A model generated the notes under the pieces. That model worked only from the letters and a program-made list of their open reading frames with translations. It made no database searches and was not told the DNA's origin. This document shows positions 16,195-34,564 of a stretch of 64,000 bases of DNA, one piece after another (the stretch's first letter is position 1; each line of letters begins with the position of its first letter). Made by a program: the position numbers and the translations under genes. This DNA comes from Anaerolineales bacterium (GTDB lineage Bacteria > Chloroflexota > Anaerolineae > 4572-78 > J111), in assembly GCA_020634935.1 (NCBI GenBank), contig JACKAT010000027.1, forward strand, positions 1 through 64,000, read 5' to 3'.

Positions 16195-16215
16195 ATAATC
16201 TCCTCACCTTTTGGT

Positions 16216-19200
16216 TTAATTATTTTGCACCAGAACGGGCAAATAAATTTTATGGCTGTTGGCCGACAAGTTTAACCCGCCTACGCCGTCGCCTTCAAAC
16301 GCACCGATGTCACAGGCCCCGGCGCGGGGACGAACAACACCGCGCTGGTCAGCCGTAAACGTGGTCCCGCAGCCGTTTGACCCGATAGGAATGGCATTAA
16401 TGGCCGGACTATCCGCCAGGAGGGCGCGGGTGCTGGTACTTCCCCCGTTGTTTTGCAAGGGTCCCAGGACCGGATTGAAACCGGCAATATCGCCAACACC
16501 AGACCCGACACAGGTGTTATCACTGTCGAGGTTGAAGCCGGCGGAGCTAATCCCGCCTGACCCGCCGCAGTTGCCGCCGGTAGGACTGTTGGCGACAATC
16601 GTATTTTGCAGCAGGAGCACACCGTCGATGTCGCTGTACAGGCCGCCGCCGGTCGTAGCGGTATTATTACTGAGGGTAGCAAATATCAGGCTGCTGCTGC
16701 CCGTATTGATATTGGCGATACCGCCGCCCAAACCAGCGCCGTTACCACCAGGTAGAGCGCCTGAGGACCCGCCGTAGATTTGGCCGCCGGTCCCGCCGGT
16801 GGCCTGGTTGCCGGACAACGTACTGTTGGTAATGGTTAAACCCGAGCCGCTTGAGTTGAAGATCGCCCCACCGTAGCCGCTGCCGCCGTCACCCCCGGCC
16901 GAACTACCATTGGCCGGCGTCCCGCCGCCCCTGCCGCCCGTCGCTTGATTGTCTGACAGGGTGCTGGCCGCGATTTGGATCGTCCCGGCCAGGTTGAAAA
17001 TCGCCCCGCCCAGGCCGGCTCCGCCGCCGCCGCCGCCGCCGCCGATCCCGGCCTGCACCACGCGATGGGAGCCGCCGTTACCGGCGCCAAAGCCGCCTTG
17101 CCCGCCGGGCAGCAGGGTTGAGGTGGAATTACTGGCCGCCCCGCCGCCGCCGCCGCCAAAGCCGCCGTTACCGCCGCGCCCGCCAAAACTCCCGCCGCCG
17201 CCGCCGCCGCCGCCATAACTGCCGTTACTGCCGTTGACGATGCCGGCGGAAGCCCCGTTGCCGCCCGCGCCGCCGGCCCCGCCGCCGCCGCCGCCGCCGC
17301 CGCCGCTGCCGGGACCGCCATTATTGCCATTACCGCCAATCGCTTGATTGGCGGATAACGTACTGGCGGCGATCGTGACGTTGCCGCCGTCATTATAAAT
17401 CGCTCCACCCAGGCCGGCCCCGCCGCCGCCGCCGCCGCTGCCGAAGCTGGCATTTGCCCCGCCGTTGCCGCCCTGGGCTTTATTCGCATTGAACACTACG
17501 CCGGTTATGGATAGTTGGCCTTGGCTGTAGATGCCGCCGCCCAAGCTGCTGTACTGGCCGGCCAGGCCGCCAATCAACGGCGGTGATGTTGGCGCACCGC
17601 TGCCGTTCGCGCCGCTCGATAGATTATTGGCAATCGTGTCGCCAGTCAAGACAATGGTTCCGGAATTCCAAATACCGCCGCCCGGCCCATTGGCTACATT
17701 GTTAGTGATGGTATTGACGCTAAATTGTAAGGTGCTGGCGCTGGCGTTATAAATGCCGCCGCCTTCGCCGCCGCTGAAGGAAAAAAGAGCCTGGTTGCTG
17801 TCGATGGTGGTTCCGGTTAAGCTCAAATTTCCAAAGTTGGCGATGCCCCCACCGCTGCCACCCTGAGCAATATTACCGCTAATGGTGCTGCTGCTGGCGG
17901 TCAGCGATCCATTATTTGTAATGCCGGCTCCGCCCAAGCCGGGCGAGCCTCCTTGTGAACCATTATTACGAACGGTGCTGGCCGTCAGGGTAAGCGTCCC
18001 GTCGTTGGCGATGCCGCCGCCGGTTACATAAGCTGTATTGCTATCAACCTGGCTGTTATTGGCCAGCGTCGCCGTGCCGGTGGATAAATTATAGATACCG
18101 CCGCCGGCTCCGTCTCCGGCCGAGTTGCCAGTGATCAGGCTGTTGATGAGGCTCAGGTTCCCGGCGTTGCTAATGCCGCCGCCGTTGCCAAAGTCCGAGT
18201 TATTGGTTACGGAGCTATCGAATAGTTGCAGTATGGCTCCGGCGGCGTTAAATAGGCCGCCACCGGCCGCCGCCGAACTGTTGGCTATAACACTAGTGCT
18301 GCTGTTGAGCATAACGATGCCGGCGGCATTGAAAATACCGCCGCCTTCGCCGGGGCCAGGTAAGACCGTCCCGGTGGCCTGGTTGCCGGTGATCGTACAG
18401 GCGTTGATGGTCAGGTTGCCGCCGTTGTTGTAAATACCCCCGCCTCGGGGTGTTCCGCTGGAGGTAAAAGCGGTATTGCCGCTGATAGTGCAGTTGGCTA
18501 AGATTAAAATGCTACCGCTATTAAAAATGCCGCCGCCCTGCACAGCTACACCGTTTGTTATCGTTACCCCCGAGATGTTGACCTGCTGACTGCTTTGCAC
18601 GGCAAAGATACGATAATTCCCGCCGCTGGCCCGCTGAATGTTCAAGAGATTAGGGCCAGGCCCGTTGATAAATATTTGAGTTATTAGCGCCGGCAGCGCC
18701 GAAGACAGGCTAATAGTGCCGGTTACACTGAAATTGATCGTCGACTCATCCGGGGCGGCGTTGGCGGCCTGAATAGCTTCGCGGAGACTGCAATGGGTTA
18801 GATCGCACACGCCGTCGTCTGTATCGGTTAAGGTATTAACGGTCAGCGGCGTCGGCGTTGGGGGTGGCGAGGTTGCTGTCGGGCCGACGCGTGGGGTTGG
18901 TGTTGGTTCGGGCGATGACGTCGCCGTGGGCTGTTCAGTGGGCGGCGCTGCTGTTGGGGGCGGCGGAGTTTCTTTCTCACTATTATTATTGTCGTTATTG
19001 TTATTGTCATTGGGGGGCGAGGTCGGCTGCGCCGGGATGACGGTCACGATGGCCGTTGGTTCGATGGTGGGCAAAACGGAGGGTTCGGGGGTAATGGCTG
19101 CGGTTGGTAAGATCGGTGTTTCAACGGTGGGAACCAGCGTTGAAATCGGCGTGGGCTGCTCGGTGCTGACGCCGGTGGCCCCCACCGTTGGGGCGACCAG

Positions 19201-19551
19201 CGTTACGCCGGCAATGGGTGTTGCTGCGCCACGTTCGGCCGGTGTGCTGCTGTTCTCATCATTAGTGCTGCGGGCCGGATGGTTCGGCCCGTTGGGCGAT
19301 GAGTCAGTCGGCAAGTGAAGGGTTGAGGTCGATGAATTCGGCGGGGCGTCACCCGCCGGGAAGGGTGTTGGCGTGAAGGTGGCCAGCGGCGTCACTACAA
19401 TAAAACGTTGAACCAATTCATCTTCCTGGCGTACGGAATTAACACCAATACCTCCGCTTGAGTTTGGCCCGAACGGATTTTGAAAACCAAGTCTACAGGC
19501 TAATGTCGTTAATAGGATTATAATTAAGCTAACCCAGCGTAATCGCGTCAT
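16216..19551 (-). CDS. Large secreted parallel beta-helix repeat protein with T/P-rich linker and extreme Gly-rich segment
   Basis: Signal peptide 'MTRLRWVSLIIILLTTLAC'. Motif 'CSLREAIQAANA' typical of beta-helix proteins. More than 30 repeats of the 'GGGI(Y/F)N...N' type. Poly-Gly/Ala segment over 16990-17300. 1111 aa. Confidence 0.6.
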   Translation of the reverse strand: MTRLRWVSLIIILLTTLACRLGFQNPFGPNSSGGIGVNSVRQEDELVQRFIVVTPLATFTPTPFPAGDAPPNSSTSTLHLPTDSSPNGPNHPARSTNDENSSTPAERGAATPIAGVTLVAPTVGATGVSTEQPTPISTLVPTVETPILPTAAITPEPSVLPTIEPTAIVTVIPAQPTSPPNDNNNNDNNNSEKETPPPPTAAPPTEQPTATSSPEPTPTPRVGPTATSPPPTPTPLTVNTLTDTDDGVCDLTHCSLREAIQAANAAPDESTINFSVTGTISLSSALPALITQIFINGPGPNLLNIQRASGGNYRIFAVQSSQQVNISGVTITNGVAVQGGGIFNSGSILILANCTISGNTAFTSSGTPRGGGIYNNGGNLTINACTITGNQATGTVLPGPGEGGGIFNAAGIVMLNSSTSVIANSSAAAGGGLFNAAGAILQLFDSSVTNNSDFGNGGGISNAGNLSLINSLITGNSAGDGAGGGIYNLSTGTATLANNSQVDSNTAYVTGGGIANDGTLTLTASTVRNNGSQGGSPGLGGAGITNNGSLTASSSTISGNIAQGGSGGGIANFGNLSLTGTTIDSNQALFSFSGGEGGGIYNASASTLQFSVNTITNNVANGPGGGIWNSGTIVLTGDTIANNLSSGANGSGAPTSPPLIGGLAGQYSSLGGGIYSQGQLSITGVVFNANKAQGGNGGANASFGSGGGGGGAGLGGAIYNDGGNVTIAASTLSANQAIGGNGNNGGPGSGGGGGGGGGAGGAGGNGASAGIVNGSNGSYGGGGGGGGSFGGRGGNGGFGGGGGGAASNSTSTLLPGGQGGFGAGNGGSHRVVQAGIGGGGGGGGAGLGGAIFNLAGTIQIAASTLSDNQATGGRGGGTPANGSSAGGDGGSGYGGAIFNSSGSGLTITNSTLSGNQATGGTGGQIYGGSSGALPGGNGAGLGGGIANINTGSSSLIFATLSNNTATTGGGLYSDIDGVLLLQNTIVANSPTGGNCGGSGGISSAGFNLDSDNTCVGSGVGDIAGFNPVLGPLQNNGGSTSTRALLADSPAINAIPIGSNGCGTTFTADQRGVVRPRAGACDIGAFEGDGVGGLNLSANSHKIYLPVLVQNN

Positions 19552-19930
19552 GAATGAGGGTTTTCCCTGAGACCATAGCTGTGGAATGTCGAAACCAGTT
19601 AGGAGTTACGCAAGTGGGTATAGAAAATTAGGTGACAACCACTTAAGTTTAAGCCAAATGGATGCGCGTTTTAATCGAGCCGTGAAGCAAAGCCGCCTTT
19701 TGCAGCGCGTAAATCCTATAAGTTAATGTGAGATCGAAATTAAACTGTCAGATTGAGATGGTTTTTGGCCGTGAGGTAAATAAGTTACCGGTAGTTAGGA
19801 TAAACGAATAAATCAACTTTGTCAAAGGTTAGGATGTTTTACTTTATAAGATCGGGCGGTTAAAATGGGCTTGCCTCCCATCCGGCCCGGTGCTATACTT
19901 TGATTTGAGGCTGCGGGGAATTAATTACCA

Positions 19931-20038
19931 GGACTTACGCAAATGCCCGATTTTGTAGCGTAAATGGCCAATTTGCGCCACGCGTCTGCCCAAAATAGGG
20001 AACAATTTAGCCAATTGTTCTACACTCTGCGTAAGTCC
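19931..20038. mobile_element. MITE-like element, family A, copy 3 (shares only the 12-bp TIRs; the interior is divergent)
   Basis: Termini 'ggacttacgcaa...ctgcgtaagtcc'. A partial family-A fragment is also present at about 19605-19640. Confidence 0.55.
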
Positions 20039-20081
20039 TGATTACGAACTTGTTTAACTCCGCTAACCTTCAAGACAGAAT

Positions 20082-21320
20082 ATGACAAATCTGTTAGGTG
20101 AAACAATAAGTGAATACCATTTAAAGGAAATGGTAGGCGAAGGCGGGATGGCCACGGTTTACAAGGCCTTTCAACCCAGCTTGAACCGCTGGGTTGCCGT
20201 TAAGGTGATGCACGAGCGCTATAGTGATCTCCTGCCTCGGTTTCAACGTGAAGCCAGAGCAGTGGCGCAGTTACGCCATCGAAATATTTTGGCCATCTAC
20301 GATTATGGTGAAGAAGCAGGTTACGCCTACATTGTTATGGAGTTTGTCGAACAGGGTACTCTCAAAGATCTCCTCACCGGCCAGCCGATGGATTGGGTTA
20401 AAGCCGTGGCCTTAGCCATTGCCATCGGCGATGCCCTGCAATACGCGCACCAGCATGGGGTTGTTCACCGTGATGTTAAGCCCTCCAACATTTTGCTGCC
20501 GTCCGTCGATTGGCCGCTGCTGGCTGATTTTGGCCTGGTCAAAATCAAGAGTTCGGAGGAGCAGTTAACCGACAGCGGTATGATCATTGGGACGCCGGAG
20601 TATATTTCGCCGGAACAAGCTTCCGGTGAGTCGGTTGATCATCGCGCCGACATTTATGCGCTGGGGGTGATTTTATTCGAGATGGTCACCGGCCGCCTCC
20701 CATTCGATTACAAAAACCTGAACCAAATTATGGTGGCCCACATTGCCGAACCGCCGCCCTCGCCCATCGAGTTGAATCCCGCCTGCCCGCCGCCCTTAGA
20801 CGCGGTTATCCTCAAAACTCTGGAAAAAGCGCCTGAGGACCGTTACCCGGATATGCGAGCTATGGTTGATGCGCTAAAAGGGGTGATTGGGTCTTCAACG
20901 CTGCCGAAAGGTAAAATTTTTGGCACGCAAGAGTTATCGCCTTATATTGCCGATTTACCGCTGCCTTACCTGGACCAGCCGGAGCCGATCGTCATTCAAA
21001 TGGCCAAAATTGTCCTTGCCGAACAAAATGTCATTATTGATGTGCCTTCGGACAAGCCCGAGGTTATCATCGGTAGAACGCACGGGGAGATCCGGGTTGA
21101 TATTGATTTGGGGCCGTATGGCGCGGCGTCGGCGGGTGTATCACGCAAACATGCCCGTTTATTACCCCAGGACAATGGCTGGCAGCTTGAGGACCTGGGC
21201 AGCCTTAATGGCACGTATGTCAATGAAATTAAGTTGAAACCGCAAAGCCCGTTGGCTCTAAAAAGCGGCGATGTTATTCGTTGCGGCCACTTACCCTTAA
21301 TTTTTAGAATCACGGTTTAA
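20082..21320 (+). CDS. Ser/Thr protein kinase with C-terminal FHA domain
   Basis: Kinase motifs 'HRDVKPSNILL' and 'DFGL'. The FHA signature is 'IGRTHGEIRVDIDL...VSRKHARL...GSLNGTYVN'. Confidence 0.85.
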   Translation: MTNLLGETISEYHLKEMVGEGGMATVYKAFQPSLNRWVAVKVMHERYSDLLPRFQREARAVAQLRHRNILAIYDYGEEAGYAYIVMEFVEQGTLKDLLTGQPMDWVKAVALAIAIGDALQYAHQHGVVHRDVKPSNILLPSVDWPLLADFGLVKIKSSEEQLTDSGMIIGTPEYISPEQASGESVDHRADIYALGVILFEMVTGRLPFDYKNLNQIMVAHIAEPPPSPIELNPACPPPLDAVILKTLEKAPEDRYPDMRAMVDALKGVIGSSTLPKGKIFGTQELSPYIADLPLPYLDQPEPIVIQMAKIVLAEQNVIIDVPSDKPEVIIGRTHGEIRVDIDLGPYGAASAGVSRKHARLLPQDNGWQLEDLGSLNGTYVNEIKLKPQSPLALKSGDVIRCGHLPLIFRITV

Positions 21321-21451
21321 TTACACATGGATTAATCAGCAAACAGGTGACTGGCACTTTTCTCCGCAATGGCATAGTTGAATGCTCCCGCCCCGTCTCA
21401 ATGGGAGTTACCTGAATACAGACGACCTATCAAATAGAAAAAAGGAATATC

Positions 21452-22006
21452 ATGACTTTCACTTGGGAAAAGTATTTGCAAGAAAAACTTATAGATGAGG
21501 AAACTCTGAGTATCCGTATTAAGGAGTTGGGCCGGCAGATTTCGCAAGATTATCGCCATCGAGATTTGCTGTTGATTTGTATTTTAAAGGGAGGGGTGAT
21601 GTTTCTGACCGACCTGATGCGCCAGATCACTATCCCCCATGAAATTGATTTTTTGGCGGTGTCCAGTTACGGCAAAGGGGTTAGACGCTCGACCGGTGTC
21701 GTCCGTATCGTAAAGGATTTGGATCAGCCGATCGCTGGCCGTGATGTTTTGATTGTCGAGGATATTGTCGACAGTGGACATACCTTACAATATATTACTC
21801 GCAACCTGGCAACCCGAGGGCCGGCCAGCTTAAAAATTTGCACCCTATTAGATAAAGCCGACCGCCGAGAAGTAGATATTGAGGTTGACTATGTTGGCTT
21901 TAACATTCCCGACAAGTTTGTTTTCGGCTTTGGCCTGGATGTTGATCAAAAATTTAGAGAATTACCGTTTATCGGGGTCGTTAAACCCGATGTTGTGATT
22001 GATTAA
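21452..22006 (+). CDS. hpt: Hypoxanthine phosphoribosyltransferase
   Basis: PRPP-binding motif 'VLIVEDIVDSGHTL'. Length 184 aa. Strong RBS 'aaaaaggaa'. Confidence 0.9.
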   Translation: MTFTWEKYLQEKLIDEETLSIRIKELGRQISQDYRHRDLLLICILKGGVMFLTDLMRQITIPHEIDFLAVSSYGKGVRRSTGVVRIVKDLDQPIAGRDVLIVEDIVDSGHTLQYITRNLATRGPASLKICTLLDKADRREVDIEVDYVGFNIPDKFVFGFGLDVDQKFRELPFIGVVKPDVVID

Positions 22007-22183
22007 GCGCCCCTGGTTAATTATTAATGTAATTGTCATTTGATCTCCATATAAACCAATTTAATCCTAAGATATAATTACCTCACCAACACATTTTGTA
22101 ACTTTCAGATAACAAGCACCTTAGCTCCGATAAAGTGCCTGTTATGTGATCTATTGAACTCAATTAACCCCAGAAACTCTTTT

Positions 22184-23638
22184 ATGCCGACCTACAAAGA
22201 TTATTATGCTATCTTAGGCATTACTCAAACAGCTACTGATAAGGATATTCGGCAGCATTATCGACAGTTGGTCCGCACCTATCATCCTGATGTTAATCCT
22301 GATTCTAACGCGGCTGAGAAATTTACGGAAATTCAAGAGGCTTACGAAACATTAAGTGATCCCCTTAGACGGCGTGAGTACGAGCATTGGCGATCGCATC
22401 AAGGGCTTGACCGCTCATCGGCGCTTAGCCTCCAAGTGATTACCAGCGAAAAATCCCTTCGCCCGCTCGATACGGAACAAGCCTTTTATGTGGTATTGAA
22501 TATCATGCCGACCGCCGATCTGCCCGCCGCTCGACTGCCCATCAATCTGGCTCTAGTGATCGATCGCAGCACCTCGATGCAAGGAAGACGCTTGCAGCAA
22601 GTCAAAGAAGCCATCCGCCACGTCATCGACGCCCTCCAATCGGAAGATTCACTGAGCTTGGTGACCTTTAGTGACCGCGCTCAGGTGTTACTACCCAGTC
22701 GGCGCAATATCGACAAAGCCATGGCCAAATCGATTGTTAGTACGATCCAGCCCAACGGTGGCACCGAAATGTTGACCGGATTAACCGCCGGTTTTGAAGA
22801 AATTAAACGGTATTGGAGCAAAACATCGATCAACCATGTCATCCTTTTAACCGACGGCCGCACGTATGGTGATGAAAGAGGCTGTTTAGAACGTGCACGC
22901 TGGGCCGGAGCTAACCAAATTACGCTAAGCGCTATTGGCATTGGCACGGATTGGAATGAAGATCTGCTCGATGAAATGGCGGCTGTTTCCGGCGGTACGT
23001 CGATTTATATCGACTCGCCGGATAAGATTCAAAATATTTTTGACCAAACCTTACGCAGCTTAGAGTCGGTGGTCGCTCGCCGGTTGAAAATGACGGTTAA
23101 TCCCAGCCCATACGTTCAACTGCATGAGGTCTATCAAATTAAACCTCAAATCAGCCGCTTTGATATTCATACCGCTACAGTAATGTTGGGTGCGTTGAGT
23201 ACTCATCAAGAGAAAAGTGTCTTGCTGGAATTTCGCATTCAGAAGTTGACCTTGGGCCAGCATCGGCTGCTGCGCCTGACCGTTGAAGGCGATATGCCCG
23301 GTCAATCTAACCATCGTCCCTGGGATTGGGTAGAATTGGTGGTTCATCTGCACGATACGGCTGAGGTGGCCGGTATTCCTTCCGCGGTGACTGACGTCTT
23401 AAAAAGTGTGGCCATCTATAAAATGCAGGAAAAAGTCCATTCTGACCTGACGGCCGGTCAGGTTAAAAGAGCCACCCAGCGCCTGGAAATTATCGCCACC
23501 CGGCTGCTCGACCTGGGTGAAGTTGAACTTTCGCGAGCGGCTTTACTGGAAGCCGGTCAACTGGCCCGTACTCAAACCCTCTCGGAAGAAGGTCGCAAAA
23601 AAATACGATACGGCACTCGGGCCTTGTCGTCGAGCTAG
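22184..23638 (+). CDS. DnaJ (J-domain) / von Willebrand factor A domain fusion protein
   Basis: J-domain 'KDYYAILGITQTATDKDIRQHYRQLVRTYHPDVNP'. The vWA region carries a MIDAS-like 'LALVIDRSTSM'. The track start at 22154 is a TTG; the ATG at 22184 gives a canonical J-domain N-terminus. Confidence 0.75.
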   Translation: MPTYKDYYAILGITQTATDKDIRQHYRQLVRTYHPDVNPDSNAAEKFTEIQEAYETLSDPLRRREYEHWRSHQGLDRSSALSLQVITSEKSLRPLDTEQAFYVVLNIMPTADLPAARLPINLALVIDRSTSMQGRRLQQVKEAIRHVIDALQSEDSLSLVTFSDRAQVLLPSRRNIDKAMAKSIVSTIQPNGGTEMLTGLTAGFEEIKRYWSKTSINHVILLTDGRTYGDERGCLERARWAGANQITLSAIGIGTDWNEDLLDEMAAVSGGTSIYIDSPDKIQNIFDQTLRSLESVVARRLKMTVNPSPYVQLHEVYQIKPQISRFDIHTATVMLGALSTHQEKSVLLEFRIQKLTLGQHRLLRLTVEGDMPGQSNHRPWDWVELVVHLHDTAEVAGIPSAVTDVLKSVAIYKMQEKVHSDLTAGQVKRATQRLEIIATRLLDLGEVELSRAALLEAGQLARTQTLSEEGRKKIRYGTRALSSS

Positions 23639-26803: not shown

Positions 26804-27337
26804 GAGATTAGGGGGTGATCGCTTCTCGTAAAAACAATGGGGTCAAAAATATCAAAGTAACTCACGGCAACCTGAGGAGAGGAAGCCAGATTAAAGGGGA
26901 ATTTTGCCGTCTACTGATAATCAATTATCCAGACGCATCGCCGGGTGGGTGGATATGGCTATTGTTTTCAAGCCTTGCGTCGGTTAGAATGGCCTAATAC
27001 CGAATATTTTTCACATCATAGAACCTTAACAATCTTAATTCCGAGCCAGAATTTTCCTGATAGTGCTTGATACTATATGATATGGAGCCGTTATCCCAGA
27101 TAAAGACGGTTTCATGCGAGACGATGCATTGTCCCAATCCAATTATACCCTATGCAACTTGACATATTATATCCTGTCATGGTACAATTAGAACATTCGT
27201 TCTGTTTAGATCAAATCGTCTGGCCATCTTTGAAGATGCGGCTCGGTATTACTTTCTCCGGCTGGCCTGGTAACCACAGTCCTCAATACTCTCAACCCCA
27301 CTTATATTTTTGATAACTTATTTATAGTGAGAAGCCA

Positions 27338-27670
27338 ATGAATTTCCCCCTCGACACGAACAATGACCAGGCCACGAGCTTATCCCCTCTCGACCACGAA
27401 GAACGTATTGTGGTATTACAACCGGTGACAATTCAAATATTTGATGGTCAAAACATCTACTCACCCAGTAAACTAAGGCCCATAAAAGAACTGCCTTATT
27501 CTGAGTTTCTTGAAAAATATGCTGACCAACCCAATCTGGTCAGAGTTTGCTTTGAGAAAACCAGTTGCTCTGACACGCTCTTTCAAAATTCAGAGGTTGT
27601 TACCGCTTATGGGGTTGGTACAGATTGTTGGTATATCGATATTACGGCTCTAAATCATAACAATGATTGA
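27338..27670 (+). CDS. Small conserved hypothetical protein (cassette 1), paralog of 31661..31981
   Basis: The shared block is 'Y.EFL..YAD.P...RVCF......S.TL...SEV.TAYGVG.DCWY' at about 50 percent identity with its paralog. It converges on the S24 gene with a 9-bp gap. Confidence 0.55.
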   Translation: MNFPLDTNNDQATSLSPLDHEERIVVLQPVTIQIFDGQNIYSPSKLRPIKELPYSEFLEKYADQPNLVRVCFEKTSCSDTLFQNSEVVTAYGVGTDCWYIDITALNHNND

Positions 27671-27679
27671 AGCTGCCTG

Positions 27680-29578
27680 TTAAATTCGCTTCACTCGAAT
27701 AAATCTTCCGGCTATAACCACCTCTGGATCAATAAAAAATTTTAATGGATTGGGAATTTCCCCGGTCCGTTTTTTTTGGTCATAGGAATCTTGGATAGCT
27801 GCGGTATCGACACCACTTTCCATAATAATAATATGTTCGCTGTTCTCATTGCCGGATTCAAGTCGTAAATGGCGTAGACTTTTATCATGTTTATTGATGG
27901 GGCGATACTTTTTTATGACCTCCAAGGGTGGTTGGTTGGCGTCTGTGTAGATGACAAAAGCCCCGATGTCACCATCATTTAGAGATGATTGCTGATGAAT
28001 CAAAACGGTATCACCGGAATAAATATGATAATCCTGCATACTATGGCCTACAATCCTCGCTCCAAAAAAATGTATAGGTTCTTGCTTCTCAGCCTGTTTG
28101 ATTATTAAATGATTCTGGACCTCGATATTTTCTCCTTGAATTAAACTTAATCCCGCCGCAACACTATTAGCCACAGGTATAGGCCAAATATAGCTTTTTA
28201 CAAACTCGTCTGATGACCCACTCCCTATGTGTAAAATAGGTTCAATAACTTCGCCACTAATGTAAACGTCATAAACATGTTTGATTTCAAAATGACGATG
28301 AGGAGTCTGATAGTAATTATTTAATCTCTCCCAATCTGTTTCATATTCCGCTAATACAATACAGGGTTGACTACTATCCAGTGGTTCTAAAAAGTAATGG
28401 TCGTCGGTTTTAGAAAATTTTCTTAAGCCTGCTTCAAGTTTGTCATTCTGTTTGGTCAAGATAAGGACGATTTTTCCATGCAGTTGGTGCGGCGAAACTT
28501 TTGCATCGATCAACAACCAATCACCCTGAGCCAAATCGGCTCCGATCGTCACTGCCGGGTCAATTTCCAAAATGTAGTCCGCATCCTCAACTGACTTTAC
28601 TTTGCCCGGATCAATCACCACCTTTTCAGGGGGAGAAGAGGTCTCAACCTCCTCGTAATCTTGTCCGGAGAGCAGATTGAGTCGGGTAATCAAGTGCCCC
28701 GTAATACAGCCTTGCCCTTTGGAAACCTCGAATAGCGGTAGCTCTCTTTCTTTAGCCGGTGTATCGGTTGATGATGGCGCTTTGGACCGCTTGCTTTTGC
28801 CCCCTTTTAGTGCTTCGATTTTATCCTGCTGTTCGCGGATTGCTTGAACCAATGCCTCTTTGTTAACTCTGGCAACGATGCTTTCTTGCAAGGCATTTCG
28901 TAGCGCTTGGTTGCAGGCATACTCGGCTTCGTCGATGTTCGATAATCTCTCGTTGATAATGGCTAGCCCTAGATAGGCTAACGATTTAAGTTGGAACCAA
29001 CTCGTGCCTTTAAATTGGTCTATGCTGTTCTCTAATAAGGTTTTTGCTTCTTGCCGGGATTGTTCATTGGTCTCAAAATTGGAGTTTAAAGCCAGGGCAG
29101 CCTGTAACAAATAAAATTTACCACAGCCGGTTTTAAGCTGATCTAGGTCGGTAATATATTCAATAACTTTTTTATCATCGGCGATTAACACTCTGTCAGT
29201 GTCCAGATCTAAATATATCTGGCTAATCAGTGAGCCAAGACGGCTCAGCTTTTTTGCAGTTACGGGATCGCTTTCCAGCCAAAATTCAGAGATTTTATAA
29301 ATATCTTGCAGATAATTATCAGAGGAAAGCGACTCATCGAGGCCGCTGTTCATCAAGCTGATTAAAAAGCTACCTGGCCGTTCAGAATTCAATGGAGGTT
29401 GATCCAAAGTATTTAGCTTAGCTCGAATCTCGGCGATTTTTTTTGTGGCTGTAATAAACTGTTCCTTAAGTTTGGCATCAGATGATATTTGAGATAACGT
29501 GTAATTCTGTTTAAGCTCAGTTAGTTGGTTAACCCCGTCAAGCGCCGCTTGTTTTAATTCATCCATCTGGTTTGTCAT
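27680..29578 (-). CDS. Giant LexA-like protein, cassette 1: helical N-region, inactive S24-like barrel, C-terminal active S24 (LexA/UmuD-type) autopeptidase domain
   Basis: The C-terminal 'IVGHSM...GDTVLI...GDIGAFVI...VIKKY' aligns with LexA 'GDSM...GDLL...VKR' (Ser/Lys dyad). The start is set at the ATG at 29578 ('MTNQMDEL', RBS 'ggtgagg') because an intrinsic terminator lies between 29605 and 29640. The track start is 29698. Confidence 0.7.
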   Translation of the reverse strand: MTNQMDELKQAALDGVNQLTELKQNYTLSQISSDAKLKEQFITATKKIAEIRAKLNTLDQPPLNSERPGSFLISLMNSGLDESLSSDNYLQDIYKISEFWLESDPVTAKKLSRLGSLISQIYLDLDTDRVLIADDKKVIEYITDLDQLKTGCGKFYLLQAALALNSNFETNEQSRQEAKTLLENSIDQFKGTSWFQLKSLAYLGLAIINERLSNIDEAEYACNQALRNALQESIVARVNKEALVQAIREQQDKIEALKGGKSKRSKAPSSTDTPAKERELPLFEVSKGQGCITGHLITRLNLLSGQDYEEVETSSPPEKVVIDPGKVKSVEDADYILEIDPAVTIGADLAQGDWLLIDAKVSPHQLHGKIVLILTKQNDKLEAGLRKFSKTDDHYFLEPLDSSQPCIVLAEYETDWERLNNYYQTPHRHFEIKHVYDVYISGEVIEPILHIGSGSSDEFVKSYIWPIPVANSVAAGLSLIQGENIEVQNHLIIKQAEKQEPIHFFGARIVGHSMQDYHIYSGDTVLIHQQSSLNDGDIGAFVIYTDANQPPLEVIKKYRPINKHDKSLRHLRLESGNENSEHIIIMESGVDTAAIQDSYDQKKRTGEIPNPLKFFIDPEVVIAGRFIRVKRI

Positions 29579-29604
29579 ATCTACCTCACCATAGTCATTG
29601 TAAA

Positions 29605-29640
29605 AAAACAGGCCGGGACCAGAAAGTGACCCCGGCTCAA
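29605..29640 (-). terminator. Intrinsic terminator-like hairpin between SPFH-1 and the S24-1 gene
   Basis: The minus-strand RNA reads 'gccgggg ucacuuucuggu cccggc cuguuuuuuua'. Confidence 0.5.
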
Positions 29641-29657
29641 TATAATTCGACCTTATG

Positions 29658-31292
29658 TTAGTCGTGCGAGGCCCCGTTGCCGTTGATTTCTTCTCCATGC
29701 CGGATCGGGATGCGTGGATAAAGCGCCGACGTTCTAACCAGACCTTCCATCTCTTTAGCCGAAGTCATCGCGCTAATCAAGCCGAGCGTGGCGTTGGAGA
29801 TTTGTTCCGGTTTCAAGGCTCCGTCTCGTTTCAATTCACGCAGTAACTCGCGGAAGAGTGCCGCTCTGGCTTCTCCTTCACCTTGACCATCGATAATGCG
29901 AGCTTGAGCTTTAGCTCTAGCAGCAATAACCGTCGCCTTGGCTTTCGACTCGGCGATCCGAGCATTGGTTTCCTCGATACGCTCTTCGATTAACGTATTG
30001 ACCTCTTTCTCAATTTTCTTCTTAATCTCATCGGGGAAAGTGATCTCGTTGAGATCGACCACCAGCAGTTTTACCCCTTTACCCAAGGCCGAGCCTTTGG
30101 TTTTCTCGGTCATATATTTTTCAAGCTCGGCAATCTTGCGCTCATTGATTTTAGCCGCCAGGTCTGCCCCTTGGCCTTCAATTTTGAACAAATCTTCGGC
30201 ATCAACGGCCATAATGGCATCCTTAACCGTGCTGGCCAGCGGGAATTTGACCGAGCCCCAAACGTCCGTGGCCCGACGAGCGGCGAGGATAGCCGTTCGC
30301 TTGTAGATTTTGTTATAGTCGTCGCCGACTTTCTCTTCTTTTTCCAATTCGGCTAATTCTTTTTTGGCCGAATTTAAGGTCTCTTCAGCGGTCTTTATTT
30401 CTTCTGGGGCGGCCCCGGTTGTTTTTAACTGATTAAAAGCTTTTTCGGCATCGGTTACAGCTTGCTGAAAACGAGCGAGCGTATCTTCGGCGGGTTCAAT
30501 TTGAGCGGCGTGCAGCACCTTAACCTCCAATGGTATTCGATCGCGGGTTAAAACATTGCTGAGCGGATTGACCGCACCCGCCGGCAGCAGCGGCAAAATG
30601 GCCTTGATCTGTTCCTGACGACCGAGCATCCACGAGCCGGCCCCAACCGCCCGGGTAATCAATCCTTGGCGCTGTAATACCACCACCTGCCCGATATGAA
30701 CCACCAGCCAGCCCGGACCACCAAAATTTTCCAACCGTTCGATATCATCCTCATTGCCTTTGAGTTTACCACCCCCATCTACCACCACCATAAAGTGACC
30801 AATCCCTAGGACGCTAAATAAGGTGTGGACAAAAGCATAAAAAAAGGCTCGATAATGAGGGCCGGTATGCCATTTGGAAACAACCACCGACGCCGCCGCA
30901 ATAACCAAGGTGAACGGTATTCCAACCGTGAGTATGGCGCCAACCACGCTAATTAAGAGGATGAGTAGAGCATCGCCCAGGGTTAGCATTCCTGTTGAGG
31001 TACCAGTTACAAACTCACGCAGCGCCGGGGTGAGGTAAATAAGGTGAATAATTAAAAATGCAGCCAAAAGATGGAGATATCCCAACAAAAACAGATTACG
31101 GCCTTGGTGTTTTTTGAAACCCCAGCCAATAAGGGCTAGAGTGGCTAAAAAGAAAAAAACGCTACCTATCACATAGTTAACGCTTGCAACTAAGCCGCTA
31201 ATGGCTAAAATAACTGCGAAAATTCCTAGTCGAATAAATGTTCCTCGCCCCGTCATGGTTTGTGGCTTTAAACGAACAAACTGTGTTGACAT
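29658..31292 (-). CDS. SPFH/band-7 (flotillin/YqiK-like) membrane protein with 4 N-terminal TM helices, cassette 1
   Basis: Four hydrophobic helices are followed by 'FGGPGWLVVHIG...VLTRDRIPLEVKVL'. The C-terminus is typical of SPFH: 'IEETNARIAESKAKATVIAARAKAQARIIDGQGEGEARAAL'. Start at ATG 31292 ('MSTQFVRLKPQTM') with a perfect RBS 'aggagg'. Confidence 0.7.
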   Translation of the reverse strand: MSTQFVRLKPQTMTGRGTFIRLGIFAVILAISGLVASVNYVIGSVFFFLATLALIGWGFKKHQGRNLFLLGYLHLLAAFLIIHLIYLTPALREFVTGTSTGMLTLGDALLILLISVVGAILTVGIPFTLVIAAASVVVSKWHTGPHYRAFFYAFVHTLFSVLGIGHFMVVVDGGGKLKGNEDDIERLENFGGPGWLVVHIGQVVVLQRQGLITRAVGAGSWMLGRQEQIKAILPLLPAGAVNPLSNVLTRDRIPLEVKVLHAAQIEPAEDTLARFQQAVTDAEKAFNQLKTTGAAPEEIKTAEETLNSAKKELAELEKEEKVGDDYNKIYKRTAILAARRATDVWGSVKFPLASTVKDAIMAVDAEDLFKIEGQGADLAAKINERKIAELEKYMTEKTKGSALGKGVKLLVVDLNEITFPDEIKKKIEKEVNTLIEERIEETNARIAESKAKATVIAARAKAQARIIDGQGEGEARAALFRELLRELKRDGALKPEQISNATLGLISAMTSAKEMEGLVRTSALYPRIPIRHGEEINGNGASHD

Positions 31293-31660
31293 ATTGCCTC
31301 CTATAGACAAAAAGTAAAAAGGCGCCGAACTCGGCAATCGCCGGTCACTGCGCTTCCTCTTAGCTTATTAATGATCTTCGGCTTTTGATTATGACAAGTT
31401 GTTATGTTAATATGATAACACATTTATTTAGAAAGGAGTCTAGTACCAAAGTACCATTAACAATCTGCGATTTCAGCGTAATGTTAAGAACTGTACGATA
31501 ACAGTACGATACCAATACGATAACTGAAGGACGCTCTTAAAAAGGTCTAAAATCTATTAGACATTTTTCAAAAATGGGCTATAATCACGTTGATCAAACA
31601 AATGTTCTAAAAACTCGTACACGTTTAACTGTTTACAACTTACCAGAAATCGGAGCAGCC

Positions 31661-31981: not shown

Positions 31982-32113
31982 CTGACGCCGCTCCTGGCGA
32001 GGGTTGCGTCTAAAGATATAAAAAGAAAACCACAAAGAACCTAAAGAAGTCGCCAAGGCCACGTAGAAATGGGGTGAACTTTGGGCTTCTTTGGGAACTC
32101 TGTGGTTAGATTA

Positions 32114-32141
32114 CAGGGGCGACCTTGGTCGCCCCTTTTGG
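32114..32141. terminator. GC-rich hairpin 'aggggcgacc tt ggtcgcccct' plus T-run between the convergent small-protein and S24-2 genes
   Basis: 10-bp perfect stem followed by 'tttggttt' on the + strand. It sits immediately 3' of the S24-2 stop. Confidence 0.5.
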
Positions 32142-32142
32142 T

Positions 32143-34287
32143 TTACAACTGAGCGACAGACACTTTCTTAATAAACTTGCCAGCAACACGCAGTTCGGCG
32201 TTAGGGTAGAAAGCTACGTTTTCCATCCGACCGGCGTAGAACCGTCTGATGCGCTCCAAACGAGCCTCGTCCGGCACAACCACCAGATGGGCGCCCGCTT
32301 GATTACTGGATTTCAAAAACCAATGCTCGTGGCCGGGCCGGTCGTAGAAATGGTAGGCTTTGATGACCTCAATGCTTTCCTCGGGTGTCTGGATGACAAT
32401 GGCGGCGATGTCGCCGTTCTCCACATGCTCTTGCTGGCGGATCAGCGCGATGTCGCCAGGCAAAATATCATCGTCAACCATGCTGTCGCCCTCGACCAGC
32501 AGACCAAAGTTGGCTCCGGCGCACTCCACCTCATCCCAATACAAATGCTCGTTGATGTCCTGAGGGGCGATGACCCCCAATCCGGCCGAGATTTGACTGA
32601 CCACCGGAATCCGGCGAATAACAGCGCTCGCTCGGCGGGCCGGTCCGGCTGCGGTCTGTTCCGGCATTAGCACCGAACCAGGTCGCACTACGCCGATCAC
32701 CGCGCCGGTCATGGCGACCTCAAAGGCCGGTTCGTGCTCGATTTTACCGCCCCATTGGCATTTCCGGTAGTAAGCCTCTATCGCTTCCACCGGCGCGCCA
32801 TAGCGATAGACAATCAATGACGCGTCCTCTGGGTGTTCGGCCCGTAAAAAGTAGTGGTCCGCTGCCTCGGTGGTTAGTGTTTTAAGCGAGGCTCGGAGCG
32901 TTTCGCCAATGATCAGAACGGCGATTTGCTTCTGACGGAGTTTAGCCGGTTTGTCCTCGGCGGCAATGAACAGCCAGTCGCCGGTCTGCAAACTGTGATC
33001 GGTTTCAACACCCGGTGGGAGCTGGACTATATAAGAGACCGCCCCCAGATCGATATCGGCTTTAGCCGCCAGCCGGTTCAAATCGAGGTTAAACTGGTCG
33101 GTGGTTAAGGGCGTCGGATCGCCGGATTCGTAATCTTTGCGGGTCAATAATTCTAGGCCCACCATACCTTGGCGGGCAGCGATCGTAGCTCCGGTCGCCA
33201 CGCTGAAGAGTTTAAAGCCGGCTTGAATTCTCGGGTTTAGACTCGTCCCGGGGTCAAACTGCCATAACTCCCCTAAGATGTCCTCTTCCAGTTCAACGGC
33301 TTGCTTTAGAGCTGTAACATCGACGCGGGCAGACATCGCTTCGTGGCGGGCGTAATCGCCGGCATCGATCAGCGCCTCAGCCGCATCATCGAGTTGGTTC
33401 AGCCGGCGCAAAGCGATAGCCTGGCCCAGGTAAGCCAACGCTAGCAGGTGAAAACAGCCCGAAGCCACATACTCATCTCTGGCTCTGAGAAAATGCTCGG
33501 CAGCCAATTCCAGATGTTCGCCTTCGTTGAGCAGAATGGCCGCCAGCAGCAGATGCAGCCGCCCTCGACTGTGTTCAAACGCCATCAAACCACCCGGATC
33601 ACTCAGGTTGGACAGTGAGACCAAGTACTCTTGTTCATCCAACTCAAGCAGCGCCTGCTCACAAACAATCGCCCCACCGCGAGGCCGGCAGACCATAAGC
33701 CGTTCAGCCTGTTCGAATGAGTCTTGCAGGTTGGCGATGACCGGCTCGGTGTCAAGTCCTTGGTCCAGTAGGTTGATAATTCGGCTGCCATCGGCTTGAC
33801 TCAAACAGTGATAGCTCTGATTTGGCACAAACCAGGCTTCCATCTGGCCCGGTTCTGGCTCAAGCAGCATGGTTTCGATACCGGGCAGCAGTGGCTCGCT
33901 GCCGGCTAAAGTTAGATGATCGTATAAGCGCTGGACGGCTGCTTCCGACAGCGTCCATTCGGTGGCTGCCCCCTCTTTGTAAACGCGCGTTTCCCGGAGG
34001 GCCTGGCGCGGTAGATCGAGCTTGGCAGCTAGGGCCTCCATCGTTATTGCGCGGCCGGCCGGGGTCAGGCCAGATCCGGCTTCTTTGGTCCAGTACAATT
34101 GAATTTGGGGTCGAAGATTTAGCTTTATCGTCGGGTCGCTAGAGACACGATCCTTGGTCTTAAGTGGTGGGTTTTTAAGCGGTAAAAAATTCTTTTCCGG
34201 CGACTCACCGAGAGAATAATACCGGCCGAATCGATGCAATTGACGGCGCTCTCGAGTCGCAACGTGATCTTGTAACATGAATCTCAC
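32143..34287 (-). CDS. Giant LexA-like protein, cassette 2: possible N-terminal HTH, TPR-like region, inactive S24-like barrel, active C-terminal S24 autopeptidase
   Basis: 'LVEGDSMVDDDILPGDIALI...NGDIAAIVI...EVIKAY' is a canonical S24 Ser/Lys dyad. The N-terminal 'GRAITMEALAAKLDLPRQALRETR' is HTH-like. It is a clear paralog of 27680..29578, sharing 'LAYLG.AI' and 'GDWL.I' blocks. RBS 'aggagag'. Confidence 0.75.
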   Translation of the reverse strand: MRFMLQDHVATRERRQLHRFGRYYSLGESPEKNFLPLKNPPLKTKDRVSSDPTIKLNLRPQIQLYWTKEAGSGLTPAGRAITMEALAAKLDLPRQALRETRVYKEGAATEWTLSEAAVQRLYDHLTLAGSEPLLPGIETMLLEPEPGQMEAWFVPNQSYHCLSQADGSRIINLLDQGLDTEPVIANLQDSFEQAERLMVCRPRGGAIVCEQALLELDEQEYLVSLSNLSDPGGLMAFEHSRGRLHLLLAAILLNEGEHLELAAEHFLRARDEYVASGCFHLLALAYLGQAIALRRLNQLDDAAEALIDAGDYARHEAMSARVDVTALKQAVELEEDILGELWQFDPGTSLNPRIQAGFKLFSVATGATIAARQGMVGLELLTRKDYESGDPTPLTTDQFNLDLNRLAAKADIDLGAVSYIVQLPPGVETDHSLQTGDWLFIAAEDKPAKLRQKQIAVLIIGETLRASLKTLTTEAADHYFLRAEHPEDASLIVYRYGAPVEAIEAYYRKCQWGGKIEHEPAFEVAMTGAVIGVVRPGSVLMPEQTAAGPARRASAVIRRIPVVSQISAGLGVIAPQDINEHLYWDEVECAGANFGLLVEGDSMVDDDILPGDIALIRQQEHVENGDIAAIVIQTPEESIEVIKAYHFYDRPGHEHWFLKSSNQAGAHLVVVPDEARLERIRRFYAGRMENVAFYPNAELRVAGKFIKKVSVAQL

Positions 34288-34564
34288 TCTCCTGGATTAC
34301 GCTTCTAAAAACAGTTGGTTGTGTGGTTGGATATAGGGTGGGGTAGGGGTTAGGTGGTTAATGGCTAACCACCTGGCCGCCTATCGTCTCATCCCTTAAT
34401 CCCACTCATATTTCTTTCTCTTCATTGCCCTAATTGGGGCTTCCGAATTTGATTGGATAATAGATTGGAGCCACAAAATTGCTTGGTGATTACCTGATTA
34501 ACTTGTTGCTTTACAAAATAGAAGCAGCCCTATATCACTATATTATCAAATGATAGCGGTAGAC

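Follow-up and report, generated by a model that had tools for sequence, protein, structure and literature searches.

To our knowledge, autoproteolysis by S24 peptidases is known almost only as a way of inactivating DNA-binding repressors (LexA, cI) or of maturing UmuD. In Escherichia coli LexA, the alanine of the cleaved Ala-Gly bond (Ala84) lies 35 residues before the nucleophile, Ser119; the C-terminal domain (CTD) of the phage 186 CI repressor, by comparison, is non-cleaving. A second set of relevant systems comprises membrane proteins of the SPFH group, which pair with proteases, as in PH1510/PH1511 and HflKC-FtsH; the STOPP protease has a Ser-Lys dyad. This pairing is said to have been pointed out by Tavernarakis et al. 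in 1999, a paper cited in PMC7159879. The third set consists of the conflict systems of multicellular bacteria, in which effectors and adaptors occupy a variable terminal position (Kaur, Burroughs, Iyer & Aravind 2020, PMC7159879); TRADD-N and Death-like adaptors are treated in a later paper (Kaur et al. 2021, PMC8195603). Here, we analyze a 64,000-nucleotide stretch of DNA from an Anaerolineales bacterium of the Chloroflexota (GenBank assembly GCA_020634935.1, contig JACKAT010000027.1, positions 1 to 64,000; referred to below as the window). Its minus strand carries two cassettes in tandem, each with a gene for an SPFH/Band-7 membrane protein followed by a gene for a giant protein that bears two S24-type barrels, of which the first is degenerate and the second has the catalytic residues.

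Each giant is predicted to consist of a variable N-terminal output module, a TPR-like region, a pseudo-S24 barrel, a linker with an Ala-Gly pair and a catalytic S24 barrel. Across the family to which the giants belong, the middle barrel, a duplicate of the C-terminal one, has lost its nucleophile; the Ser-Lys dyad and the cleavage motif of the C-terminal barrel are retained or lost jointly; the gene is linked to an SPFH gene; and the position taken by effector domains in relatives varies in content. The reading that we favor, and to which we give about an even chance of being correct, is that of a conflict or stress cassette, linked to an SPFH protein, whose N-terminal adaptor or effector would be gated by self-cleavage of the LexA type, the giant not being a transcription factor.

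The C-terminal S24 barrel and its predicted cleavage site

The original prediction, made from the sequence of the window, had placed a catalytic S24 domain at the C terminus of both giants, and all of the strings that it quoted are found in the window proteins. The Pfam family PF00717 (Peptidase_S24) matched both proteins above its gathering score (E = 1.8e-13 for giant 1 and 9.4e-14 for giant 2), with the Pfam matches confined to the C terminus in each case. The motifs are GDSM (aa 600-603) and VIKAY (aa 641-645) in giant 1 and GHSM (aa 551-554) and VIKKY (aa 594-598) in giant 2. The comparison with LexA, cI and UmuD that had been proposed bore the assignment out: LexA, UmuD' and cI were the top Foldseek matches of the C-terminal barrel, and the C-terminal barrels also matched LexA chains in the PDB by sequence. 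The LexA dyad aligns with Ser602/Lys643 in giant 1 and with Ser553/Lys596 in giant 2. An Ala-Gly bond precedes the serine by 34 residues in giant 1 (Ala568-Gly569) and by 38 in giant 2 (Ala515-Gly516), giving a LexA-like spacing of 34 to 38 residues from Ala to Ser and of 41 to 43 from Ser to Lys. Within the catalytic-type barrel of giant 1 there is, in addition, a helical insert specific to the family.

An exhaustive hidden Markov model search with a profile of the TPR-like region plus the middle barrel, run over 1.84 billion representative sequences, recovered only 64 proteins, 40 of them at E <= 1e-30; the family is thus very small, with about 45 clusters. In the 45 members that have a C-terminal barrel, the serine, the lysine and the Ala-Gly pair are all kept in 37, all lost in 5 and mixed in 3. 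The dyad is broken in 8 members, and only one of these has kept Ala-Gly. This joint retention and loss fits the signature that would be left by a cis-cleaving unit with a dead minority.

Dead C-terminal barrels were seen in P0010, P0016, P0022, P0031-P0034 and P0045, where the serine has become G, D, P, I, R or A, the lysine has become Arg, and Ala-Gly has been lost, mostly jointly.

A degenerate barrel in the middle of each giant

A second LexA-like segment had been reported about 180 aa upstream of the catalytic motif. The segment is present (GDWLFIAAEDKPAKLRQKQIAVLII at aa 436-460 of giant 1 and GDWLLIDAKVSPHQLHGKIVLIL at aa 392-414 of giant 2), but its distance to G(D/H)SM is 164 and 159 aa, respectively. 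A sequence-profile search of the PDB with the middle domain returned noise only, so that profile-profile and fold comparisons were needed to establish its S24 nature. When aligned by hhalign with the family's own C-terminal barrel (39 + 45 sequences), the middle segment matched over 119 columns with a probability of 97.9 % and an E value of 4.7e-13; with 10 sequences, the probability was 90.6 % (E = 1.3e-6). The matched columns take in the family-specific helical insert and the (D/E)H(Y/W)FL strand, which are common to both barrels, and 2 of 10 middle domains matched Pfam S24 on their own (E = 4.7e-4). Structure prediction for the middle segment alone, with a deep alignment, gave a confident fold (predicted local distance difference test [pLDDT] 87.7, predicted template modeling score [pTM] 0.85), the structural neighbors of which include the phage 186 CI CTD and SipA, an inactive signal-peptidase homologue.

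The segment had also been said to lack a nucleophile, and the family alignment agrees. The nucleophile position is Val in both window giants and Val or Ile in 31 of 40 members; 36 of 40 have V, I, A or L, and no more than 2 have a serine there. The equivalent of the catalytic lysine is K or R in 37/40, with giant 1 keeping Lys (SLKTL), and the motif DHYFL (aa 477-481 of giant 1) has its Asp and His in 37/40 and 40/40 members, respectively. Judged from these alignments, the middle barrel is a pseudo-peptidase, a copy of the S24 domain of this same family that originated by internal duplication and no longer has the nucleophilic serine.

It can be envisioned that the giants are non-proteolytic scaffolds, in which both barrels would be just oligomerization or ligand-binding modules and a TPR-mediated assembly would carry the signal. 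The middle barrel is certainly non-catalytic, 186 CI CTD and SipA are among the structural neighbors, and the C-terminal barrel is also dead in 8/45 members, all of which would suit such a scaffold; however, the upkeep of Ser, Lys and Ala-Gly at LexA-like spacing in 37/45 members, including both window giants, is not expected without catalysis, and we consider this explanation unlikely.

The N-terminal region

The string GRAITMEALAAKLDLPRQALRETR, which had been taken for an N-terminal helix-turn-helix (HTH), corresponds to aa 78-101 of giant 1 (33985-34056). No HTH family matched the N-terminal region even at E <= 10, and a profile of the N-terminal domain found no DNA-binding protein in the PDB, where its matches were coiled-coil noise only. 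A homologue search with the alignment of this domain gave no match and did not recover the family itself either. In the full-length AF2 model of giant 1, residues 61-153 adopt a b-a-b-b-a-b-b topology at low confidence (pLDDT 55-69), and GRAITMEALAAKLDLPRQALRETR falls on a helix (residues 76-89) and then a strand (residues 98-103), that is, helix 1 and strand 2 of the domain.

Giant 2 has no such alpha/beta domain and carries a short coiled coil in its place, and neither window giant has a recognizable effector-associated domain (EAD). The length of the N-terminal extension varies among family members from 0 to ~270 aa: the position consists of 0-9 residues in many members and is otherwise held by TIR, Trypsin_2, EAD7 or a coiled coil. 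Because the position is either missing or occupied by other modules, the conserved core of the family is without a DNA-binding module.

These results bear directly on the proposal that the giants are oversized LexA/cI-type repressors, in which an HTH would bind operators and self-cleavage, with the pseudo-barrel as a mimic of the dimer partner, would derepress the targets. In favor of such a repressor, the C-terminal half of the giants is truly an autoprotease module of the LexA type, Ala-Gly site included, and aa 78-101 of giant 1 are helix rich and conserved in close orthologues; however, the N terminus matches neither an HTH family nor a DNA-binding structure, its topology as predicted at low confidence is not that of an HTH, and the domain is missing from giant 2 and from most relatives, which have TIR, trypsin or EAD7 there instead. 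In P0011 and P0014 it sits between TIR and TPR. The LexA equivalog model TIGR00498, furthermore, scored 47.4 and 42.1 bits for the two giants against a cut-off of 110.95 and covered only their C-terminal part. The repressor part of the original prediction is thus not borne out, and we regard it as very unlikely.

The segment that lies between TIR and TPR in P0011 and P0014 is homologous to the giant 1 domain and may offer another clue. TRADD-like_N and NCOA6_TRADD-N gave sub-threshold matches (E = 0.03-0.045), and only to the segments of these two proteins. In the RRM-like b-a-b-b-a-b adaptor sandwich of TRADD-N, a conserved 'uS' turn joins b2 to b3 (PMC8195603). The modeled topology agrees with that of TRADD-N at low pLDDT, and at the turn giant 1 has G-A and P0011 has G-S. 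The N-terminal domain of giant 1 is possibly a TRADD-N/RRM-like adaptor, a tentative assignment.

The SPFH partner and gene context in relatives

Pfam Band_7 (PF01145) matched the membrane protein of cassette 2 (E = 1.5e-6, 28.8 bits versus a cut-off of 23.6) and that of cassette 1 below threshold (12.4 bits). In a hydropathy scan, the SPFH proteins have a hydrophobic N-terminal stretch of ~180 aa, with about 5-6 transmembrane (TM) segments in the cassette 1 protein, and the same scan found no TM segment in the giants. An SPFH gene lies directly upstream of the family member in every locus read, namely, the window (x2), L001 (x2), L003, L004, L005 (x2), L006, L007/8, L009, L010 (x2), L011, L012, L013, L016, L017 and L018. 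A cleavage site on the C terminus of the SPFH protein was considered and dropped, since the alignment shows no conserved Ala-Gly there.

Strict linkage of an SPFH gene to a protease gene, the classical partnership of SPFH proteins with proteases and an ordinary chromosomal neighborhood would all be expected of a housekeeping membrane-proteostasis pair like stomatin-STOPP/NfeD or HflK/C-FtsH, in which the S24 barrel would act in trans, with the SPFH protein or clients in the membrane as its substrates. Several observations make this improbable: the Ala-Gly pair inside the giant tracks the dyad, as cis cleavage predicts, and the SPFH C terminus has no conserved counterpart; the family is extremely rare and patchy; the giants are soluble; and the TIR, trypsin and EAD7 fusions, together with an EAD7 partner gene, are hard to square with housekeeping. 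The identity of the partner also bears on how cleavage might be triggered. The nearest solved relatives of the barrel are the RecA-responsive LexA and UmuD, and the same switch could be stimulated by RecA*-single-stranded DNA (after DNA damage or during phage replication), with the SPFH protein merely serving as an anchor; however, the loci show no link to recA or DNA repair, and what is strictly linked to the giant is a gene for a membrane protein, so that we hold a trigger of this type to be quite unlikely.

The effector-like domains are found in relatives. The second cassette of L005 encodes a giant with an N-terminal TIR domain, and the giant of L009 has a trypsin domain. In L007 (5603-6130) and L008 (5557-6084), a gene for a 175-aa protein, made up of an EAD7 domain and a short helical tail, directly follows that of an EAD7-bearing giant; by analogy with EAD-coupled systems, it fits the role of a coupled partner of the giant. 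Downstream of the trypsin-fused giant of L009 (7407-8422) are genes for a 133-aa multi-TM protein and for a stand-alone S24 barrel that belongs to the family and is 205 aa long; this barrel protein has a TM helix at its N terminus, together with an AAG site, the GDSM motif and the Lys.

In three loci the giant is split into consecutive genes after the SPFH gene, one for TPR plus pseudo-barrel (368-390 aa) and one for TPR plus S24 barrel (Table 1). Since the split forms stay adjacent, in a Rosetta-stone relation, the dead and live barrels are suggested to act together. The proposal that the two barrels of one chain might mimic the LexA dimer draws no more than indirect support from these loci. 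The S24 barrel of the split form in L011 is itself catalytically dead (P0045).

A small open reading frame (ORF) of ~107 aa converges on the 3' end of the giant gene in both window cassettes and in L001, L004, L005 (x2), L010 (x2), L011 and L012, and it is absent beside the giants of L006, L007 and L009. It has 15 invariant residues and the motif LQP..MR.PN..Y.PSK...EFL..YAD.P...CFD...VTAYG.GLDCWY, and it matched no Pfam family. It is probably a third cassette component in one clade.

Genes for KAP-family NTPases adjoin the cassettes in L004 (6461-6745) and L011 (4173-5501). The place of the giant expected after the second SPFH gene of L004 is taken by a KAP fragment and a transposase-like HTH.

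Composition and distribution of the family

In 49 aligned members, Pfam domains were S24 (43), TPR (~19; TPR_1 in 19, TPR_12 in 8), EAD7 (8), TIR (4) and Trypsin_2 (1), and the TPR-like region gave Foldseek matches to TPR-like proteins. Besides the full-length architecture, there are short forms without the middle barrel and others with TPR and pseudo-barrel only. Members with an organism name come from Anaerolineae metagenome-assembled genomes, and every located or named member belongs to the Chloroflexota, as do all five loci recovered by a scan of GTDB with the SPFH alignment. A scan of GTDB genomes with the pattern AxDHYFLKA found no relative. The trypsin-fused member P0028 (JGI) is labeled "SOS-response transcriptional repressor LexA" by its source, which is likely a misannotation driven by the S24 domain.

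Layout and surroundings of the window locus

The coordinates of the features are collected in Table 1. The original prediction was attached to positions 32143-34287, which span giant 1 only, though it treated both giants.

The 672-aa ORF of giant 2 probably overstates the protein, whose true start is predicted to be Met41 or Met45, because the homologues P0007 and P0008 begin there, without the 5' extension, and because a hairpin followed by T7 sits inside that extension. The hairpin may attenuate read-through from the SPFH gene. The protein collection has no full-length copy of giant 2 but only P0038 (312 aa), which corresponds to its C-terminal part (27680-28618), as judged by eye and unaligned; it seems that the source annotation called a truncated giant 2 gene, though the ORF in the window is intact.

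The GC content of the giant 2 region (27200-29600) is 0.38-0.48, versus 0.53-0.59 for the giant 1 region (32000-34400). Since base composition differs so strongly between the cassettes, it suggests that they were acquired separately and not by a recent local duplication.

A promoter scan gave a signal no higher than that of shuffled controls. Among the proteins encoded upstream, at 13768-23638, are a DnaJ-vWA protein, a pair of Ser/Thr kinases, of which one has FHA, and a protein of 1111 aa without a Pfam match, and this region could be another signaling or conflict-type cluster.

Table 1. Positions of cassette genes, predicted domains and hairpins in the window, and of related features in other loci
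Feature	Position	Strand	Basis or remark
Cassette 1, gene 1: SPFH/Band-7-like membrane protein, 544 aa	34565-36199	-	51 % identity to cassette 2 paralogue; hydropathy scan
Cassette 1, gene 2: giant 1, 714-aa ORF	32143-34287	-	Database protein P0001 (711 aa) begins at Met 34278
Giant 1 N-terminal alpha/beta domain, aa 55-160	33808-34125	-	AF2 secondary structure; homology to P0011/P0014 segment
Giant 1 all-helical TPR-like region, aa 163-345	33253-33801	-	AF2 helices 166-343, pLDDT 70-90
Giant 1 degenerate S24-like barrel, aa 354-540	32668-33228	-	Pseudo-peptidase
Giant 1 predicted LexA-type self-cleavage bond Ala568-Gly569 (ISA/GLG)	32581-32586	-	Aligned to LexA cleavage-site region
Giant 1 catalytic-type S24 barrel, aa 557-714	32146-32619	-	Ser602 at 32482-32484, Lys643 at 32359-32361
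Cassette 1, gene 3: convergent small ORF, ~106 aa	31664-31981	+	No known family; homologues at same position in relatives
GC-rich hairpin and T-run, terminator-like, between convergent small ORF and giant 1	32115-32136	+	Consensus scan only
Cassette 2, gene 1: SPFH/Band-7 membrane protein, 559-aa ORF	29658-31337	-	Pfam Band_7; homologues begin at Met ~31292
10-bp GC-rich hairpin and T7, between SPFH-2 stop and Met41/Met45 of giant 2	29612-29636	-	Inside 5' extension of 672-aa ORF
Cassette 2, gene 2: giant 2	27680-29578	-	672-aa ORF reaches 29698; likely start Met41 or Met45
Giant 2 coiled-coil N terminus, aa 41-103		-	
Giant 2 TPR-like region, aa 104-300	28799-29389	-	
Giant 2 pseudo-S24 barrel, aa 316-490	28229-28753	-	
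Giant 2 predicted cleavage bond Ala515-Gly516	28151-28156	-	
Giant 2 S24 barrel, aa 502-672		-	Ser553 at 28040-28042, Lys596 at 27911-27913
Cassette 2, gene 3: paralogue of convergent small ORF, 110 aa	27338-27670	+	
Split giant, L011	1038-3282		
Split giant, L017	1861-3240		
Split giant, L018	1827-3865		
Small ORF homologue, L001	7663-7983		
Small ORF homologue, L004	3941-4261		
Small ORF homologues, L005	12402-12722, 16830-17156		
Small ORF homologues, L010	2603-2926, 6635-6964		
Small ORF homologue, L011	3339-3662		
Small ORF homologue, L012	11229-11549		

Discussion

In the cassette that we favor, the giant would be the soluble cytoplasmic component, and the multi-pass SPFH/Band-7 scaffold and the convergent ~107-aa protein would be the others. 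The TPR region and the pseudo-barrel may serve as regulatory or partner surfaces. In the resting state, both barrels and the TPR region would keep the N-terminal module inactive, possibly docked on the membrane SPFH assembly. Perturbation of the membrane, passed on by the SPFH protein, or binding of a ligand to the TPR region could, for example, then trigger Ser602/Lys643 to cut Ala568-Gly569 (Ser553/Lys596 and Ala515-Gly516 in giant 2) in the fashion of LexA, which would detach the catalytic barrel and leave the N-terminal part freed or reorganized. The output in the window giants would be an adaptor-type module, the alpha/beta domain in giant 1 and the coiled coil in giant 2; in relatives, this role would fall to a TIR domain, to a trypsin-like protease or to an EAD7 adaptor, the last pairing with the neighboring EAD7 protein. 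That cleavage occurs, together with its trigger, its consequence and a role in immunity or cell death, is what we infer from this architecture. Identity between the two cassettes is 51 % for the SPFH partners and 28 % for the giants; on these comparisons, the giants are diverging fast while their SPFH partners stay conserved, which we count in favor of the conflict or stress cassette.

Several points weigh against it. The window neighbors, a sulfate permease, glpX FBPase, a radical SAM protein and SCO1, are ordinary chromosomal genes and form no defense island. A scan against PADLOC-DB 2.0 yielded no family matched by either giant, and weak coiled-coil-type matches only for the SPFH proteins. 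The window giants carry no recognizable enzymatic effector, just putative adaptor modules, and the full-length model of giant 1 is poor (pLDDT 62.7, pTM 0.43). The Fisher test for joint loss (p = 1.8e-7) is not corrected for phylogeny. Because the dyad or the site is broken in 8 of the 45 members, the family can apparently function without proteolysis. Finally, no NTPase gene lies inside the cassette in any of the loci read, although the EAD-coupled systems that it resembles are built on NTPases (STAND, MoxR-vWA or GTPase).

A bolder version of this reading, possible but doubtful, is that the cassettes are an immune or programmed-cell-death system of filamentous Chloroflexota in which self-cleavage replaces the NTPase switch. 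The SPFH cage would sense envelope damage or phage entry; the live barrel, restrained by its dead twin as an intramolecular pseudo-dimer, would cut the Ala-Gly linker and release the TIR, trypsin or adaptor modules; and the ~107-aa protein would act as a regulator or antidote.

The S24 chemistry here seems to be coupled both to an SPFH scaffold in the membrane and to modules of the TIR, protease or adaptor type, and a dead paralogue is built in. If cleavage does take place, the giants would represent a new type of switch for bacterial immunity and cell-death systems, a new class of partner for SPFH proteins and a natural pair of pseudo-enzyme and enzyme within one chain. Database labels can be corrected in any case, at least one relative having been annotated as a LexA repressor.

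The individual domains are all known. S24, LexA or a pair of SPFH and S24 genes are not mentioned in PMC7159879 or PMC8195603, and full-text literature searches found no description of an SPFH+S24, S24+TIR or tandem-S24 system; the obligatory SPFH partner, the tandem of dead and live S24 barrels and the joining of these to TIR, trypsin or EAD7 thus appear to be undescribed.

With the CTDs of LexA, UmuD and lambda cI, the C-terminal barrel of the giants shares the S24 fold, the Ser of G-x-S-M, the Lys base and an Ala-Gly pair ~35 residues upstream, and the middle barrel shares the fold. Unlike LexA and cI, the giants have no winged-HTH or other DNA-binding domain, and they carry two barrels per chain, one of them dead, both with the family-specific helical insert and the (E/D)H(W/Y)FL motif; they also add a TPR region, variable effector or adaptor modules and linkage to an SPFH gene. 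The phage 186 CI CTD and Streptococcus pyogenes SipA are single non-cleaving domains, whereas the dead barrel of the giants is fused or adjacent to a live paralogue. In stomatin-STOPP/NfeD and HflK/C-FtsH, a membrane SPFH scaffold likewise adjoins or works with a protease; however, those proteases have a ClpP-like or AAA+ metalloprotease fold rather than S24, and the giants differ in their soluble multidomain layout, self-cleavage motif and effector fusions. The EAD-coupled conflict systems (PMC7159879) resemble the family in their TIR, trypsin-like and EAD7 domains at a variable terminus, which are found in relatives of the window giants, in their TPR "superstructure" repeats and Band7-like scaffolding and in their filamentous Chloroflexota setting. 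The coupling rule of those systems also holds in relatives, where EAD7 is present in 8/49 members and a cognate EAD7 occurs on a stand-alone neighbor in L007 and L008.

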